Shown in pieces: positions 2,915-38,803 of a DNA stretch of 64,000 nucleotides (position 1 is the stretch's first letter; each line of letters opens with the position of its first letter). Below the pieces are notes generated by a model. It had not been told where the DNA came from. It saw only the letters and a program-made list of their open reading frames with translations, and did not search any database. The stretch is from positions 1-64,000 of IMG/VR virus record IMGVR_UViG_3300029215_000002; one strand, given 5' to 3'. The DNA comes from a virus. The position numbers and the translations under genes are program-made.

Positions 2915-2929
2915 AAAACCTCCTAATTT

Positions 2930-3181
2930 TTATAAGCATTTATCAATTTCTTTACGCAACTGACATAATACCTCGTATGCTCTATTGCCTATCTTAGATA
3001 CACTATCTTTTGGGTTATTTCTGTATTTAGAATTATTTATTAAATCTTCAATACCATTTGTAAGTATCAGAATAATTTTCTCTTGATTTTTATATCTTAT
3101 ATCATCAATTTGTGGGGCTCCATATGGTTCGCTATATCCTACAAACATTTGTATAACTTCCAACAATGATTCATTCACCAT
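2930..3181 (-). CDS. hypothetical protein (83 aa)
   Basis: minus-strand tiling ORF. Confidence 0.4.
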   Translation of the reverse strand: MVNESLLEVIQMFVGYSEPYGAPQIDDIRYKNQEKIILILTNGIEDLINNSKYRNNPKDSVSKIGNRAYEVLCQLRKEIDKCL

Positions 3182-18049: not shown

Positions 18050-18487
18050 TTACATTGCCTTTGCAATCGACTTAACCTGATTATCAAGGTATTTTACAAC
18101 CAGACGTTTCTTAGCAAGATTCAAACCTTTTTCAATTTCAAATTCATCATCTTTACAACAGGTAGCTTCTGCTTTAAATGCTCCACATCTAATCTGAACT
18201 TTTTTTCCGTTAGTTCGATAAAGATAGTTACATCTTACATCTTTGCCATTAATATCTGTAAACCTAATTTCATTTAAGTACCACTTACTCCAAGTCCTCT
18301 TTACAGGTTCTTCAACATTTTCAAAATACTTTTCATACTCGTCATATGACATACAGCCAAGATGACAACCACCAAACTTAAAGCAGATTACTCCACCTTC
18401 CTGAATATCAGTTACTTCACAAATCTCACCAATGTTATCAAAAACACCCATTTTATGAATGAGTTTAATTTTATCGCCTTTTATCAT
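18050..18487 (-). CDS. hypothetical protein (145 aa)
   Basis: minus-strand ORF. Confidence 0.45.
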   Translation of the reverse strand: MIKGDKIKLIHKMGVFDNIGEICEVTDIQEGGVICFKFGGCHLGCMSYDEYEKYFENVEEPVKRTWSKWYLNEIRFTDINGKDVRCNYLYRTNGKKVQIRCGAFKAEATCCKDDEFEIEKGLNLAKKRLVVKYLDNQVKSIAKAM

Positions 18488-19614
18488 GCTGCTTTGTCCT
18501 CCTTATTCGCAAATTTTTTGTTAAATGCATCAATAGCTTTCTGATCCTCTGCTGTTACATCATCATTAAATCTTCGTCTAGCTTGTACAATATGATTATT
18601 TCTTACTTCAATCGTTACCAAACTCTCATCTGGTTTACTCTTTTTTCTCAAAAAAAGAATGTGGCACTCACCGTCAATAACCTTATCTATGTATGAAGCA
18701 ACGCAATTTGACATCTGAGCAGCCTCATCCTTTATATCCTGTGTAGAATCTGGATAAATGAATATGTAATCACCAAAAGAGCATTCATACTGTTTATTTA
18801 TTCTCTTTTTAAATAACTCTTCTGAGAACTCTTTCTTCATTCGATTGTAATTTCTACAAGCAATCTTATGTGTAGTAAGGAAATGCCGTGGATATTTATC
18901 AAATTTAGGACTAATAGTTTTCATCATATTTGCATAATCGCACAATTCATGAATTAGGAAACCCATATCTTCAACTGCCTCAAACGTCTTGATTCTATCC
19001 AGATACAACCATAAATCCTTTGCATTATATCCAAAGTCGTTCACTAATTTATTGAAAAATGAATAATAAATTAAATCTCCATTAACTCTATCCCATGTTT
19101 CTGCATTCCAAACAATATAAATATCATCAAAATCTAAACTTAAATAATCCAAGTTATAAGCTATGTAATGTGCATCTTGATTTTCTTTATAATACTCAAC
19201 AGTATTGTTGGATAATTTAATAGGATATTTACGACATAATTTGATTAGAGATTTTGGGATTTCATTTATAGAATACTTGAACCGACAACCATCTTTAATA
19301 ATGTCATCAAAACCTGCTGAAAATATCTGTTCAAATCTATTATATCTTGGGACTCTATCAAGAATTGTTCCTATGTTACTTATCGGATACGAATACATTT
19401 CTGAGTTTCTAACAAATCGTAAAAACTTTGCATACTTCTCATCATCGCAACAATCAAATAATTTATTTAATGTAAGTCCACTTAACTGACTACATAGATT
19501 TTTTACTGGTTTACCCTTAATTCCAATAGCGGTCTTTGTTGCAAAATCATATTTTACGGTACGACCATCTTCATAATCAAAAATGAGATACTGCCTATCT
19601 TTATATACTCTCAT
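18484..19614 (-). CDS. PcfJ-like protein (376 aa)
   Basis: C-terminal MSNCVASYIDKVIDGECHILFLRKK...SLVTIEV resembles the conserved PcfJ-domain core. Moderate call from memory of the family. Confidence 0.45.
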   Translation of the reverse strand: MRVYKDRQYLIFDYEDGRTVKYDFATKTAIGIKGKPVKNLCSQLSGLTLNKLFDCCDDEKYAKFLRFVRNSEMYSYPISNIGTILDRVPRYNRFEQIFSAGFDDIIKDGCRFKYSINEIPKSLIKLCRKYPIKLSNNTVEYYKENQDAHYIAYNLDYLSLDFDDIYIVWNAETWDRVNGDLIYYSFFNKLVNDFGYNAKDLWLYLDRIKTFEAVEDMGFLIHELCDYANMMKTISPKFDKYPRHFLTTHKIACRNYNRMKKEFSEELFKKRINKQYECSFGDYIFIYPDSTQDIKDEAAQMSNCVASYIDKVIDGECHILFLRKKSKPDESLVTIEVRNNHIVQARRRFNDDVTAEDQKAIDAFNKKFANKEDKAA

Positions 19615-19668: not shown

Positions 19669-20256
19669 TCACATCATTATGTGTTTCGCCATCTGAGTAA
19701 TACAAAACTCCTTAATTCCAAGGTCAATTCCAATTTCATTATTACTAACTGGTAATTTCTCTTTATCATTCTGATTTACCAAAACAGAAACATAATATTT
19801 ACCAGAAGGGTTTTGTGAAACTGTAACAGATTTAATTAGCCCTTCAAAATCTCTATGTTTCTTGACCCTAATTAAACCTATTTTAGGTAATTTAATATAT
19901 CTATCAGATACATATATATTTCCACCTTGATTGTTAGTCGTGTAAGAGTAGTTGTGATTTTTCTTACTTTTGAATTTAGGGAAACCTACTTCTGGTCTTT
20001 TGAAGAAATTATTATAAGCCGTTTGTAAATTCATCTGTGCATTTGCTAACGCAAGAGAATCAACTTCTTTTAACCACTCAAACTCTTTCTTGTATTGAGC
20101 AGGTGTATTGTTAAGTTTCTTTTTTGTTTCCTTATAATACTCAATCTTATCTGAAAGCATACGATTATAGATGAATCGTACACATCCAAAACACTTTGCA
20201 AAATATTCTTTTTGTTCTTCGTTAGGATACAATCTGTATTTATATGCAATTAACAC
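19669..20256 (-). pseudogene. tnpB: Truncated TnpB (IS200/IS605/IS607 OrfB) N-terminal fragment, 195 aa, ending just after the RuvC-I motif
   Basis: N-terminal YRLYPNEEQKEYFAKCFGCVRFIYNRML and RuvC-I GIDLGIKEF are present. RuvC-II, the zinc finger and RuvC-III are missing. Paralogous to the intact TnpB at 36091..37281. Confidence 0.7.
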
Positions 20257-22117: not shown

Positions 22118-22189
22118 CGGGGCTAATCGGATTCGAACCGATGAATGCAGAGATCAAAACCCTGTGCCTTACCACTTGGCGATAGCCCT
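22118..22189 (-). tRNA. tRNA-Gln: tRNA-Gln (anticodon UUG), 72 nt, no encoded CCA
   Basis: Hand-folded cloverleaf: acceptor AGGGCUA/UAGCCCC, D-arm GCCA-AGUGGUA-AGGC, anticodon stem CAGGG/CUCUG with loop UUUUGAU, T-arm AUCGG-UUCGAAU-CCGAU, discriminator G. Very similar to E. coli tRNA-Gln. Position 1:72 is an A·C mismatch. Confidence 0.8.
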
Positions 22190-35673: not shown

Positions 35674-35910
35674 TCACATTACCTCCTTTAAAGTGTCGAA
35701 TAAATCATTTCTACTTTCTGTAATATCTACAACTTTGCTTAATTCTTCCCAATCTTCTTGATTTCCTGTTCTACTTAAATGGTAATGCCCACCGTCAATT
35801 GCTACAGCTCCACATTTACAAGATACAAATTGATGTTGAGCTTTACTTTCTATAATATCTCCACATCTCTTACATTTAATTTTATTTACTAAAATCTTTT
35901 CCAATATCAA
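35674..35910 (-). CDS. zinc-ribbon protein (78 aa)
   Basis: CKRCGD...CKCGAV. Confidence 0.45.
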   Translation of the reverse strand: MILEKILVNKIKCKRCGDIIESKAQHQFVSCKCGAVAIDGGHYHLSRTGNQEDWEELSKVVDITESRNDLFDTLKEVM

Positions 35911-35929
35911 TCACCGTTACTGAAAACTT

Positions 35930-36110
35930 ATAAAAAGTTATAATTATCTTATCTTTTATGTTTCATTCCTACTTCTATGAGTATGCTTTTGAGGGTTGCT
36001 TGCAACCCTCTACTTACAAGTTCTTGTACTCTCCATAGGCGTAAATTCCTGACTAACGAATCAGTACATATCTGTGATAACTTGATTGTGTTATACTACA
36101 GATTGTTTTA
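35930..36110 (-). ncRNA. Candidate omega-RNA (TnpB guide RNA scaffold) overlapping the 3' end of tnpB and the element's right end
   Basis: Position expected for omega-RNA. It contains a perfect hairpin GAGGGTTGC-tt-GCAACCCTC and further short hairpins (TACAAG-tt-CTTGTA; CTGAC..TCAG) immediately 3' of the tnpB stop. Confidence 0.35.
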
Positions 36111-37281
36111 AAATATTTTCTCCGTATTTTTTTAGATTTAAAGAAGCTTGATAATCTCTGTCAATTACATTTCCACATTCACATCTGTAAATACGGTCTG
36201 ATAAACTTAAATCTTTCTTGATTGTTCCACAACAACTACATAATTTAGAACTTGGAAAGAATCTGTCTACAATGATTACTGAAATATTATTCCAAACAGA
36301 CTTATATTCAATTTGTCGTCTAATTTCATAAAATCCTTGTTGTTGTACTGCTTTGGATAAATGCCTATTCTTCATCATTCCACTTACATTCAAATCTTCT
36401 AACACAATAAAACTTGGTTCTCGTTTTATAATCTCTGAAGTTATATGATGTATGTAGTTCTGACGAATGTTTGTTAGTCTATGATTTAATTTTAATAAAA
36501 GTTTTTCCTTTTTGATTACATTCTTTGTTTTACAGTAACTTTCTCCTTTCTTATTTTTTCCATATTTTCTTGATATAGAACGCTGTAATCTGCGTTTTTG
36601 TTTTTCTAACTTCTTAACTCTTTGTGTCTTGTTAATGTTTTGATATTTATTACCATCAGAACATATTGCTAAATCTTTAATTCCTAAATCAATTCCAATT
36701 CCTTCATTAGACGGATTTATAGTGGAATCTTCATACTCAATACCAACCGTAAAATACCAATTTATTCCATCATATTTGATACGAGGATTCGTGTACTTAC
36801 AATCTGTAGGTATTCTATTATGTTCTGCAAGTCTAATCCAATTTAACTTTTGTTTGCTTTTCTTCTTAGAATTAGCAAACCCCTCAACTTTTACATGAGT
36901 ATCAGAAAATTGAATCCTTACATTATCCTGATAGAAAGATGGCATTGAAAATTTACGGCTTTTAAACTTAGGGAATTTTGAATATCCTTTGAAAAATCTC
37001 TTATATGCGTTGCAAGCATCTTTAATTGCTTGTTTTGTTACATTATTAGAGATTTTATTTAACCAAGAATATTTATCAGTTTTCTTCAACTGTGTAAATT
37101 CTTTTCTCAAATCTCCATCAAATATGAACTTGCCACCATTTTTATGGTTTTCTTTTTCTCTACTTAAAGCCCAATTATAAGCAAATCTGGCAGTATTAGC
37201 ATATTGGAAAAGTTTAGTCTTTTGCTTGTTATTTGGAAGTAACATTACTCGAATTGTTTTTATCATCTTTTTCACCTCCAT
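36091..37281 (-). CDS. tnpB: TnpB (IS200/IS605/IS607-family OrfB RNA-guided endonuclease), intact, 396 aa
   Basis: RuvC-I GIDLGIKDLA, RuvC-II IVLEDLNVSGM, zinc finger CSCCG...CECG, RuvC-III DRDYQASLNL. Confidence 0.85.
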   Translation of the reverse strand: MEVKKMIKTIRVMLLPNNKQKTKLFQYANTARFAYNWALSREKENHKNGGKFIFDGDLRKEFTQLKKTDKYSWLNKISNNVTKQAIKDACNAYKRFFKGYSKFPKFKSRKFSMPSFYQDNVRIQFSDTHVKVEGFANSKKKSKQKLNWIRLAEHNRIPTDCKYTNPRIKYDGINWYFTVGIEYEDSTINPSNEGIGIDLGIKDLAICSDGNKYQNINKTQRVKKLEKQKRRLQRSISRKYGKNKKGESYCKTKNVIKKEKLLLKLNHRLTNIRQNYIHHITSEIIKREPSFIVLEDLNVSGMMKNRHLSKAVQQQGFYEIRRQIEYKSVWNNISVIIVDRFFPSSKLCSCCGTIKKDLSLSDRIYRCECGNVIDRDYQASLNLKKYGENILKQSVV

Positions 37282-37296
37282 CCTCTATAAGTTCTC

Positions 37297-37459
37297 TTAC
37301 AAGTTTTCTTGATTTAATTGCCCGTGTGAATAATACCTATACCCATTACTAGATGTATGGCGAGGACGTAGTTTTCCATTCTTATCCCAATTTCGTAATG
37401 TTTTGTGCTGATACACCTAATATCTTTGAAAACTCATTGATAGAATAATATTTACTCAT
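37297..37459 (-). pseudogene. tnpA: Remnant of IS607-family TnpA (serine recombinase): only the N-terminal MerR-like HTH, with a frameshift; the catalytic domain is deleted
   Basis: Frame 1 reads MSKYYSINEFSKILGVSAQNITKLG*. The adjacent frame reads KTLRNWDKNGKLRPRHTSSNGYRYYSHGQLNQENL*. Joined, they match the IS607 TnpA N-terminus (MKYYSIGEFAKLCGVSVQTLRNWDKNGKLKPHH..GYRYYSEEQL). GGAGG RBS. The stop abuts the tnpB start, as in IS607. Confidence 0.6.
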
Positions 37460-37589
37460 AAAGTAAATCCTCCTTATAATGTTTATACTTTATTCTATCA
37501 ATATATAAGTTATAAAAATCAACACTTTTTATATGTTTTTATAAGTTATATTTAACTGCTAAATACCTCTTTCTTAACAATCTTAAAAG

Positions 37590-38051
37590 TTAAAATTCAT
37601 CCCATAATTTATCATCTTCATTTCCAAAAGGTGTGCTACAATTTTCTTCGGCAGCCTTAATAAGATATTTTCTTTCTAGCATAGTCATATCAGATACAAT
37701 TTCTTCAGCTTGTTCTTTAGCTTTTAATATTTTATTAATCAAAAAATCACATTTTTCTTTTACTTGATTTTTAACACCATTAGGAATATTATCCCATTTA
37801 AGATAACAATTCAATCTTTCTTCTATATCTTTATCATCTCTTAAATCATTTCCACTGAAACAAATTTCTCTTATGTCTCCATTTATATCTTTCCCAAAAT
37901 TATTTTTATGTCTTGAAAAATTCTCATAATGATCTATATATCCACCAGTATAATATTTACTATAAAATACTTTTCCACAATGTTCGCATATCATTTTATT
38001 TATTTCCATTCTCATCATTCCTTTCCATTCCCGAAGAAAACTTGGTTTCAT
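37590..38051 (-). CDS. hypothetical protein (153 aa)
   Basis: minus-strand ORF; CEHCGK zinc-ribbon-like N-terminus. Confidence 0.45.
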   Translation of the reverse strand: MKPSFLREWKGMMRMEINKMICEHCGKVFYSKYYTGGYIDHYENFSRHKNNFGKDINGDIREICFSGNDLRDDKDIEERLNCYLKWDNIPNGVKNQVKEKCDFLINKILKAKEQAEEIVSDMTMLERKYLIKAAEENCSTPFGNEDDKLWDEF

Positions 38052-38270
38052 TTATTTATATTTAGTCTCTTTTGTTCTTGCATCTATTCCTATGACTTCT
38101 TTCTCTCTCTTGTTAAATATAAATTCTAAAACAGGTGTGTTGAATTCCGGATCAATAGTAGCCCATCCTCTAGCTCTTTCATCATCAACTAATTCTACAG
38201 ACTTGTATCCCTCTTTCTTTTTCTCTTTAAGAAAGGTTATTACACTATCAATATCTGAACTAATTCGCAA
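38052..38270 (-). CDS. hypothetical protein (72 aa)
   Basis: minus-strand ORF. Confidence 0.4.
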   Translation of the reverse strand: MRISSDIDSVITFLKEKKKEGYKSVELVDDERARGWATIDPEFNTPVLEFIFNKREKEVIGIDARTKETKYK

Positions 38271-38272
38271 TA

Positions 38273-38803
38273 TTATACACCTCTTTCAATAAATTCTTTG
38301 TCAAATTCTCTATCAGTATCAACAAATTCACCTACTGAACCAATAATAGCCGATTCAATATCATCATCTTCTTCAATGTATTCGTCTTCTTCATCATCCC
38401 AATTTTCTTCAAATTTAAAAAAACCATCGCATTCATAAATACTACCAACCTTTTTAATTTCGTTCTGCTGTAATAAATATTCTTCATCAAGAAGGGTATC
38501 TGCAAGTTCTTTTAATAAATCTTCATAATCACTACCACATTCACAATTTGAAATTCTATGTAAAATTTCACTTCCTTTATCTGTATTTTGATCTAACCAA
38601 TTTGCATAACTTGATATATCATTACGCCAACCGTCAACATAATGTTTGTTGTCAAATACATCACCATCATTGTACCATTTATATATTAACTTACAAACTG
38701 CTGTTACAATCTGTGTTGCTTTTGTATCCCCTTCTCCCCAAACGGTTAAATATAAATCGCTTACATTTTTAAATTTTTTAAAATAAATTCCTTTTACTGA
38801 CAT
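38273..38803 (-). CDS. hypothetical acidic protein (176 aa)
   Basis: minus-strand ORF; D/E-rich. Confidence 0.45.
   Translation of the reverse strand: MSVKGIYFKKFKNVSDLYLTVWGEGDTKATQIVTAVCKLIYKWYNDGDVFDNKHYVDGWRNDISSYANWLDQNTDKGSEILHRISNCECGSDYEDLLKELADTLLDEEYLLQQNEIKKVGSIYECDGFFKFEENWDDEEDEYIEEDDDIESAIIGSVGEFVDTDREFDKEFIERGV

Follow-up and report, generated by a model that had tools for sequence, protein, structure and literature searches.

A probable non-autonomous IS607-family element with an intact TnpB, a RAGATH-18 guide RNA and a decayed tnpA in a phage genome

The stretch of viral DNA analyzed here (hereafter the window) is 64,000 nt long and comprises positions 1 to 64,000 of the IMG/VR record IMGVR_UViG_3300029215_000002. 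It is phage DNA, encoding a DNA polymerase, a primase/helicase, a replication initiator, and a tyrosine integrase. An element of 1652 bp lies inside this phage genome on the minus strand (37565..35914). From its sequence it is very probably an IS607-family insertion sequence in non-autonomous form, belonging to the subclade whose TnpB is guided by a RAGATH-18 RNA. The element consists of a dead tnpA, an intact tnpB, a full RNA scaffold, and both transposon ends, and all genes around it are also minus-strand and co-oriented with it. An initial annotation of the window, made from the sequence alone, had described a degenerate IS607-like element that retains TnpB and a putative omega-RNA but has lost its serine recombinase, and Pfam, Rfam, and homology evidence bears out this description. 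The span it gave (35930–37459) was too short. A start at 35930 loses the final 16 nt of the RNA scaffold and the entire guide, and an end at 37459 leaves out 106 nt of the left end (LE).

Translation of tnpB probably starts at ATG 37266 (MIKTIRV...), since the Pfam match and all relatives begin there, behind the sequence GGAGGTG (37279..37273). TnpB proteins of RAGATH-18-guided IS607 elements are approximately 330–433 amino acids (aa) long and contain a RuvC D-E-D triad and a zinc finger; the TnpB encoded in the window has 391 aa and contains both. The Pfam domains HTH_OrfB_IS605, OrfB_IS605, and Cas12f1-like_TNB were identified in this protein, and it aligns with the solved ISFba1 TnpB (8iaz_A) with an E value of 3.6e-82. 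Relative to 8iaz_A, the RuvC residues D193 (GIDLG), E290 (LEDLN), and D369 (IDRD) and the CxxC..CxC zinc finger are all kept, in agreement with the initial annotation of an intact TnpB with all RuvC motifs and the zinc finger. Among published systems, the protein shares 76% amino acid identity, without gaps, with the TnpB of ISCsp (Ren et al., 2024; PMC11061315).

RAGATH-18 is the guide-RNA core for a large clade of IS607 TnpBs, in which conserved motifs flank it on the 5′ and the 3′ side and the RNA lies outside the coding sequence (PMC11061315). The Rfam model RAGATH-18 (RF03064) matches the window at 36039..35966 over its full length (model positions 1–71), with 65.3 bits against a gathering threshold of 44.9. 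The motif begins 52 nt past the tnpB stop codon and is thus located 3′ of tnpB without overlapping it. The strong hairpins that the initial annotation had taken for a putative omega-RNA therefore belong to a genuine guide RNA, as the full-length match attests, while its inclusion of the 3′ end of tnpB in that RNA does not hold, since the guide RNA in this family does not overlap the tnpB coding sequence. The complete scaffold (right-end element RNA, reRNA, or omega-RNA) is composed of a 5′ flank hairpin, the RAGATH-18 motif, and a 3′ flank hairpin, and ends at the right end of the element with TATAAGTTTTCAGTAACGG (35932..35914). The hairpin GAGGGTTGC-AA-GCAACCCTC at 36010..35991 corresponds to the variable apical stem of the RAGATH-18 match.

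The scaffold (36090..35914) is co-linear with the published ISCsp and ISBsp2 scaffolds, with the same start and the same end (AACGG). It carries both the 5′ and the 3′ flanking RNA motif, and its length falls within the 170–190 nt or so of scaffolds that end at the right end. In an alignment of 33 relatives, compensatory changes were observed at 29 of the 33 consensus pairs, and the window retains every stem. Folding of the single scaffold sequence was weakly better than that of shuffled sequences (z = -1.74); because this signal is weak, the structural argument rests on the Rfam model and on covariation. Conservation among relatives stops exactly after AACGG, where the published scaffolds also end, indicating that the guide segment at the 3′ end of the omega-RNA is formed by the 20 nt flanking the right end (35913..35894). 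This guide sequence is unique within the window.

The tnpA gene is reduced to two remnants. The first opens at ATG 37459, and its reading is broken by one extra A in the run 37404..37401, where intact relatives read GCACAAACATTA; the first frame stops at 37382 after 25 codons and the second at 37297. When one A is removed, the repaired 53-aa peptide matches Pfam MerR (1.3e-14) and shares 81–90% identity with residues 1–50 of the TnpA (221 aa) in Enterocloster phage CB457P1. Together with the ribosome-binding site (RBS) upstream, this substantiates the initial annotation of a frameshifted IS607 TnpA stub with a helix-turn-helix (HTH). That stub was said to end exactly where tnpB starts; it stops 15 nt ahead of the first ATG of the tnpB open reading frame (ORF). 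The second remnant encodes approximately the last 33 residues of TnpA and overlaps the RBS and start of tnpB. Between the two, 424 nt are missing relative to CB457P1, corresponding to codons ~51–191 of its TnpA and bounded by two TAAA[T/A]CAAG microhomologies. The lesion is thus an internal deletion and not the C-terminal truncation that had been supposed, and the loss of the whole serine-recombinase catalytic domain, which had also been reported, is confirmed. The breakpoints were placed from local matches, as a global MAFFT alignment had misplaced the gap. A functional programmed frameshift in tnpA was considered and rejected, since the repaired product would still be without the whole catalytic domain. 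No TnpA-like sequence was found elsewhere within the 64-kb window. The head and tail of tnpA probably survive since the head holds the promoter region and the tail holds the RBS, both of which would serve tnpB.

Table 1. Features of the IS607-family element and of its surroundings in the window
Feature	Coordinates	Strand	Remarks
Left flank AAGAGG	37566..37571	-	Shine-Dalgarno-like target, presumed transposon-associated motif (TAM)
Left end (LE), non-coding	37460..37565	-	TAGCAGTTAA motif and two TTATAAA-type repeats
Promoter-like hexamers TTGATT and TAGAAT	37522..37517 and 37497..37492	-	In the LE
tnpA RBS AGGAGG	37474..37469	-	Inside the element, not the TAM
tnpA N-terminal MerR-type HTH remnant (aa 1-50)	37297..37459	-	Pseudogene; Pfam, tblastn, alignment
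Deletion junction in tnpA	37308..37311	-	CAAG microhomology; 424 nt missing relative to CB457P1 tnpA
tnpA C-terminal tail remnant (aa ~187-219)	37229..37309	-	KLVRELIEDGGEKDDKNNSSNVTSK and stop; tblastn with CB457P1 TnpA, alignment
tnpB, intact	36091..37281	-	396-aa ORF; likely start ATG 37266 (391 aa)
Guide-RNA (reRNA/omega-RNA) scaffold, 177 nt	35914..36090	-	Rfam, relatives, published scaffolds
Predicted 20-nt guide	35894..35913	-	TGATTGATATTGGAAAAGAT; flanking phage DNA that includes the beginning of the gene downstream
Downstream phage gene, DUF7695 zinc-ribbon protein	35674..35910	-	PF24749, 7.3e-26; probable start TTG 35904
Different TnpB remnant, IS605/IS1341-like, N-terminal 195 aa	19669..20256	-	Unrelated to the element

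The ends of the element were defined by comparison with IS607 relatives. At the right end (...TTTTCAGTAACGG), approximately 90 independent junctions lose conservation exactly after AACGG, which places the boundary at 35914, and the bases that follow are locus-specific. On the left, homology to intact elements begins at about 37575 (37572–37577 in the group of L002, L005, L022, and L026; L numbers denote compared loci and contigs), and the LE reaches 106 nt 5′ of the tnpA ATG. The flanks of the left ends of approximately 30 independent relatives end in RRAGG, after which comes N4-TAAC(A/T)G; in the window, this junction reads ...AAGAAAGAGG/TATTTAGCAG, the slash marking the boundary. A GG is present at both junctions, with GG 37567..37566 forming the crossover core common to the right end. 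Comparison with the vacant site AAAGAGG/TGATTG revealed no target duplication beyond this GG core.

Defined ends, a common core dinucleotide, and the lack of target duplication are the features of an IS607 element, as is the arrangement of its genes: tnpB lies directly 3′ of tnpA and co-oriented with it, and the tail remnant (37309..37229) overlaps the start of tnpB (37281/37266). A serine-recombinase TnpA with a MerR-like HTH and a catalytic domain is no longer encoded. With the catalytic domain deleted, the copy is a degenerate, non-autonomous derivative and not a functional IS607 member. To call it immobilised, as the initial annotation had done, overstates the case: both ends are kept and are homologous to those of intact elements, which makes the copy non-autonomous rather than demonstrably fixed.

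The closest published system is ISCsp of Coprococcus sp. AM25-15LB (PMC11061315). Besides the gap-free TnpB alignment, its scaffold begins and ends at the same positions as that in the window, and the two differ little except in the variable apical hairpin. More generally, the RAGATH-18 IS607 TnpB systems described by Ren et al. (PMC11061315), among which those listed with a scaffold end ...TTTTCAGTAACGG are the relevant ones, share with the window the RAGATH-18 core, an A/G-rich flank at the LE, and a tnpA pseudogene. The element in the window differs from them in being phage-borne, in having an internal tnpA deletion besides the frameshift, and in an 8-nt insertion in the last loop of the scaffold. 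ISFba1 TnpB (PDB 8IAZ) resembles the TnpB in the window in fold, domain order, catalytic triad, zinc finger, and RAGATH-18 scaffold, but belongs to another subclade; its scaffold ends with ...GAGTGGCAG (...GGCAG) and its TAM is AGGAG. The TAM-contacting residue K80 of ISFba1 is N in the window TnpB in an alignment read by eye, which fits a different TAM but does not prove it.

The element in Enterocloster phage CB457P1 (OP172753) is likewise phage-borne, with 77% DNA identity in tnpB, the same left-end architecture, the same right end, and the same tnpA/tnpB overlap. It differs in encoding the full 221-aa TnpA with its serine-recombinase domain, of which the window copy lacks codons ~51–191. 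ISDra2, with a TnpB of the IS200/IS605 type, is comparable in having an RNA-guided RuvC nuclease, a guide taken from the right-end flank, and the vacant site as natural target, but it differs from the window element in its transposase (Y1 HUH instead of a serine recombinase), in an omega-RNA overlapping the 3′ end of tnpB, and in a T-rich TAM. Free-standing homing endonucleases of the T4 SegF type provide a parallel for the predicted outcome of mixed infection, in which the carrier serves as template for repair of the cleaved competitor allele and neighboring DNA is dragged along (co-conversion or marker exclusion); these enzymes recognize DNA through protein, whereas the window element would use an RNA guide and a TAM, and its homing is a prediction. 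The nuclease-dead TnpB derivatives of the TldR type also combine a phage-borne TnpB relative with a guide RNA. They are catalytically dead and target host promoters, while the window TnpB has intact catalytic residues and a guide that equals the flank. IS607 TnpBs with a RAGATH-18 guide RNA and frequent tnpA decay have already been published, and the window copy is an ordinary member of this family.

The frequency of tnpA loss was surveyed in viral and bacterial genomes. In the viral sample, consisting of contigs with a TnpB at least 60% identical and representing 37 distinct insertion sites, tnpA was full at 6 sites, a remnant at 10, and lacking at 17, while tnpB was intact at 33. The viral remnants are of several kinds (aa 1–34+127–221, 142–221, 174–221, and 192–216). 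Among 62 scorable bacterial loci, mostly from Lachnospiraceae with other Clostridia, tnpA is full at 20, partial at 27, and absent at 15. Loss of TnpA is thus the usual state of the subclade in phages as well as in bacteria; Ren et al. (2024; PMC11061315) reported that 30% of the TnpAs in these loci are pseudogenes. Independent internal deletions that spare the HTH head and the tail recur (L005, L093, L100, L115, L122, and L151), and the tnpA of the Falcatimonas locus L151 keeps aa 1–50+191–221, nearly the pattern in the window. Such recurrent retention of head and tail is as expected if selection keeps the left-end promoter and the tnpB RBS. In several tnpA-less loci (L009 at 2925..3020, L011, L053, and L044), a right-end terminus (..AAGTTTTCAGTAACGG) lies directly 5′ of tnpB or of the tnpA tail, and in L009 it is joined to an otherwise intact left end at the -35 region. 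This suggests that the right end of another copy landed at the tnpB site resembling a Shine-Dalgarno sequence and that recombination came next, which would be one route of tnpA loss.

Target preference was analyzed with a set of 96 distinct right-end junctions (loci L003–L172). At 67 of these junctions (70%), an ORF of 40 or more codons in the same orientation begins with a start codon 3–14 nt past the right end, compared with 14% of random positions. The distance to the start codon has its mode at 6–8 nt, and the window provides a case of this arrangement (35913..35902). The IS607 subclade therefore inserts between a Shine-Dalgarno sequence and a start codon, and with left flanks ending in RRAGG its presumed TAM is in effect an RBS. 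This preference is not mentioned in Ren et al. (2024). In the window, the insertion parts the Shine-Dalgarno sequence AAAGAGGTGAT of the DUF7695 gene from its start codon.

The same element was identified at the same site in the independently assembled contig IMGVR_UViG_3300023504_000391 (123.6 kb), where both the extra A and the deletion junction recur. Between this sibling contig (L052) and the window there are 55 differences in tnpB, and in the right flank 23 of 200 positions differ. Across the left end and the tnpA remnant (284 nt) the two are identical, and since they are too similar in this left part, selection cannot be read there. Most of the tnpB differences (45 of the 55) cluster in a stretch of approximately 320 nt (37012..36691) with 14% divergence, a pattern that resembles gene conversion by another IS607 copy.

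A 21-mer search of metagenome contigs retrieved the predicted empty junction in ERZ773188 NODE-6 (247 kb) and OOAZ01007860, and a protein search with the downstream gene retrieved two further vacant sites in IMG/VR contigs, one of them IMGVR_UViG_3300045988_147361. An exact 23-mer scan of viral contigs for the vacant site gave no match. In three of the vacant contigs (L088, L091, and L092) the site reads ...TTATTAAAGAGG/TGATTGATATTGGAAAAGATTTTAGTAAATAAG, that is, AAAGAGG followed by a perfect match of at least 30 nt to the guide region; the fourth has GGAGG and three mismatches. Guide matches flanked by a presumed TAM, which the initial annotation had suggested looking for, are therefore present in related phages. 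The contigs L088, L089, and L091 are 98–100% identical to the window in neighboring blocks, and L092 is 95.5% identical to it across 2.4 kb to the right of the site. Relatives of the 153-aa gene upstream of the site (L084–L086) were also tried as a source of vacant sites and rejected, as they diverge right after the stop codon of that gene.

The DNA left of the site (38559..37566) is a hypervariable slot, in which phages that are 98–100% identical on either side differ in small-gene modules. The 153-aa gene left of the site in the window is found in other phages beside unrelated downstream genes.

In this family, TnpB binds the scaffold, carries a 20-nt guide derived from the 3′ flank, recognizes an A/G-rich TAM beside the LE, and cuts both strands; the published TAMs are AGGAG and GAGGG (PMC11061315). 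TnpA-independent homing has been demonstrated for plasmids and proposed for phages (PMC13565253). The canonical selfish role for the window copy, in which it cuts vacant sites and homes into them, is plausible given the vacant alleles in sister phages. The element would be transcribed from the co-oriented phage genes, from its own left-end promoter, or from both. TnpB would then bind the scaffold, whose 3′ extension would be the 20 nt of flanking phage DNA, and the complex would cut DNA in which an A/G-rich TAM (AGAGG or GGAGG) immediately precedes the guide sequence, namely the uninterrupted allele of sister phages. The occupied allele would be spared, with AACGG standing in place of the TAM. 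Repair from the occupied genome would install a copy at the vacant site with no need for TnpA (non-restorative homing), and failed repair would destroy the competitor genome. Transposition to new sites would require TnpA in trans. The homing and phage-versus-phage targeting raised in the initial annotation is thus a plausible function, given the vacant sites with a perfect guide match in sister phages.

Several observations weigh against this selfish reading. The vacant-site phages hold a different module of approximately 650–700 nt directly left of the site, so that homing repair would have to co-convert that module. The TAM of the subclade is deduced from natural flanks (RRAGG; AAGAGG in the window), and cleavage by the distantly related ISFba1 is lost upon any single change in its TAM. 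The scaffold has a lineage-specific 8-nt insertion (35952..35945) in the loop of its last hairpin. The hexamers TTGATT and TAGAAT in the LE are 19 nt apart through expansion of a TA repeat, compared with 16–17 nt in relatives with an intact tnpA, and a consensus promoter scan made no call at the left end owing to this 19-nt spacer. Finally, the deletion-junction 24-mer occurs in only one other viral contig and at the same site there, leaving no direct trace of spread. The spacing of the hexamers may weaken the element's own transcription.

Among the alternatives, the copy might still transpose with TnpA supplied by intact IS607 relatives that the host or a co-infecting phage carries. Both of its ends have homologous counterparts in intact elements, and such relatives are abundant in the genomes of Lachnospiraceae and other Clostridia and in phages. 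We nevertheless consider trans-mobilisation rather unlikely, since the deletion junction occurs at this one site only, in a single additional contig, and the window itself offers no TnpA. The closest intact left ends are only 77–88% identical to that in the window, so that cross-recognition is hypothetical. An integrase-like ORF nearby was considered as the recombinase acting in trans and rejected, because it encodes a tyrosine recombinase.

It is unlikely that the element is an inert fossil that died recently, with tnpB and its RNA intact merely for lack of time and either unexpressed or inactive. The identity of the window and its sole sibling over the left end and tnpA remnant indicates a young lineage, and both the off-consensus promoter spacer and the loop insertion in the scaffold would fit such a fate. 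Against this, tnpB is open at 33 of 35 scorable sites across the subclade, against a loss of tnpA at 27, which argues for selection on tnpB that is independent of tnpA. All RNA stems are preserved, and read-through transcription is expected from the co-oriented neighboring genes.

A domesticated system, which the initial annotation favored, would be one that the phage has fixed for its own benefit as a weapon against competitors or as a transcriptional regulator. The death of tnpA beside an intact tnpB and RNA, the guide matches in sister phages, and the fact that most phage-borne copies of the subclade keep tnpB without tnpA all agree with this idea. We regard it as very unlikely for the present copy. 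The guide is exactly the flanking DNA at the right end, as in every canonical copy, and is not aimed elsewhere; the catalytic residues are intact, unlike those of known domesticated nuclease-dead derivatives; and both transposon ends are retained. Decay of tnpA is equally common in bacterial chromosomes. Moreover, the insertion is polymorphic, being absent from phages 98–100% identical to the window in neighboring blocks, and hence is not a fixed phage gene.

That the frameshift and deletion are assembly or sequencing errors in a genome with a full tnpA, a condition under which the initial annotation would have failed, is a negligible prospect and essentially refuted already: the frameshift does fall in a short A run, but the otherwise different genome of the independently assembled sibling contig, with its 55 tnpB and 23/200 right-flank differences, has identical lesions, which effectively excludes assembly error.

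A second TnpB gene fragment in the window (19669..20256) breaks off just past the RuvC-I motif GIDLGIKE, with a PcfJ-like gene next downstream (18484..19614, minus strand). The truncation after RuvC-I agrees with the initial annotation. The fragment is not a paralogous copy of the element's tnpB, as its product shares only 31% amino acid identity with the element's TnpB, compared with 62% with OrfB in Clostridium phage c-st. No RAGATH-18 or other Rfam RNA was found adjoining the fragment in an Rfam search. A tRNA gene (22118..22189, minus strand; Rfam, 57.1 bits) lies amid the phage replication genes. When 24 kb of the window was compared with GenBank phages by megablast, the tnpB segment alone matched, and no close reference phage was found.

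The value of this locus is that of a natural test case, in which the same phage lineage occurs with the insertion and with a vacant site that matches the guide perfectly. That TnpB alone drives homing or exclusion of competitors has been shown for plasmids and for phages only proposed. It is a tentative possibility, on balance doubtful, that an element whose transposase is dead maintains itself and moves between co-infecting sister phages by means of its RNA-guided nuclease alone, a gene drive that needs no TnpA and co-converts the adjacent module; the subclade would then be RBS-seeking, with the Shine-Dalgarno sequence as its TAM. If true, the target of this gene drive would be the Shine-Dalgarno/start-codon region of the vacant allele, into which recombination would copy the element, dragging the adjacent variable module along as phage homing endonucleases do. 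The Shine-Dalgarno preference of the subclade could also inform the co-evolution of TAMs and transposase target choice.

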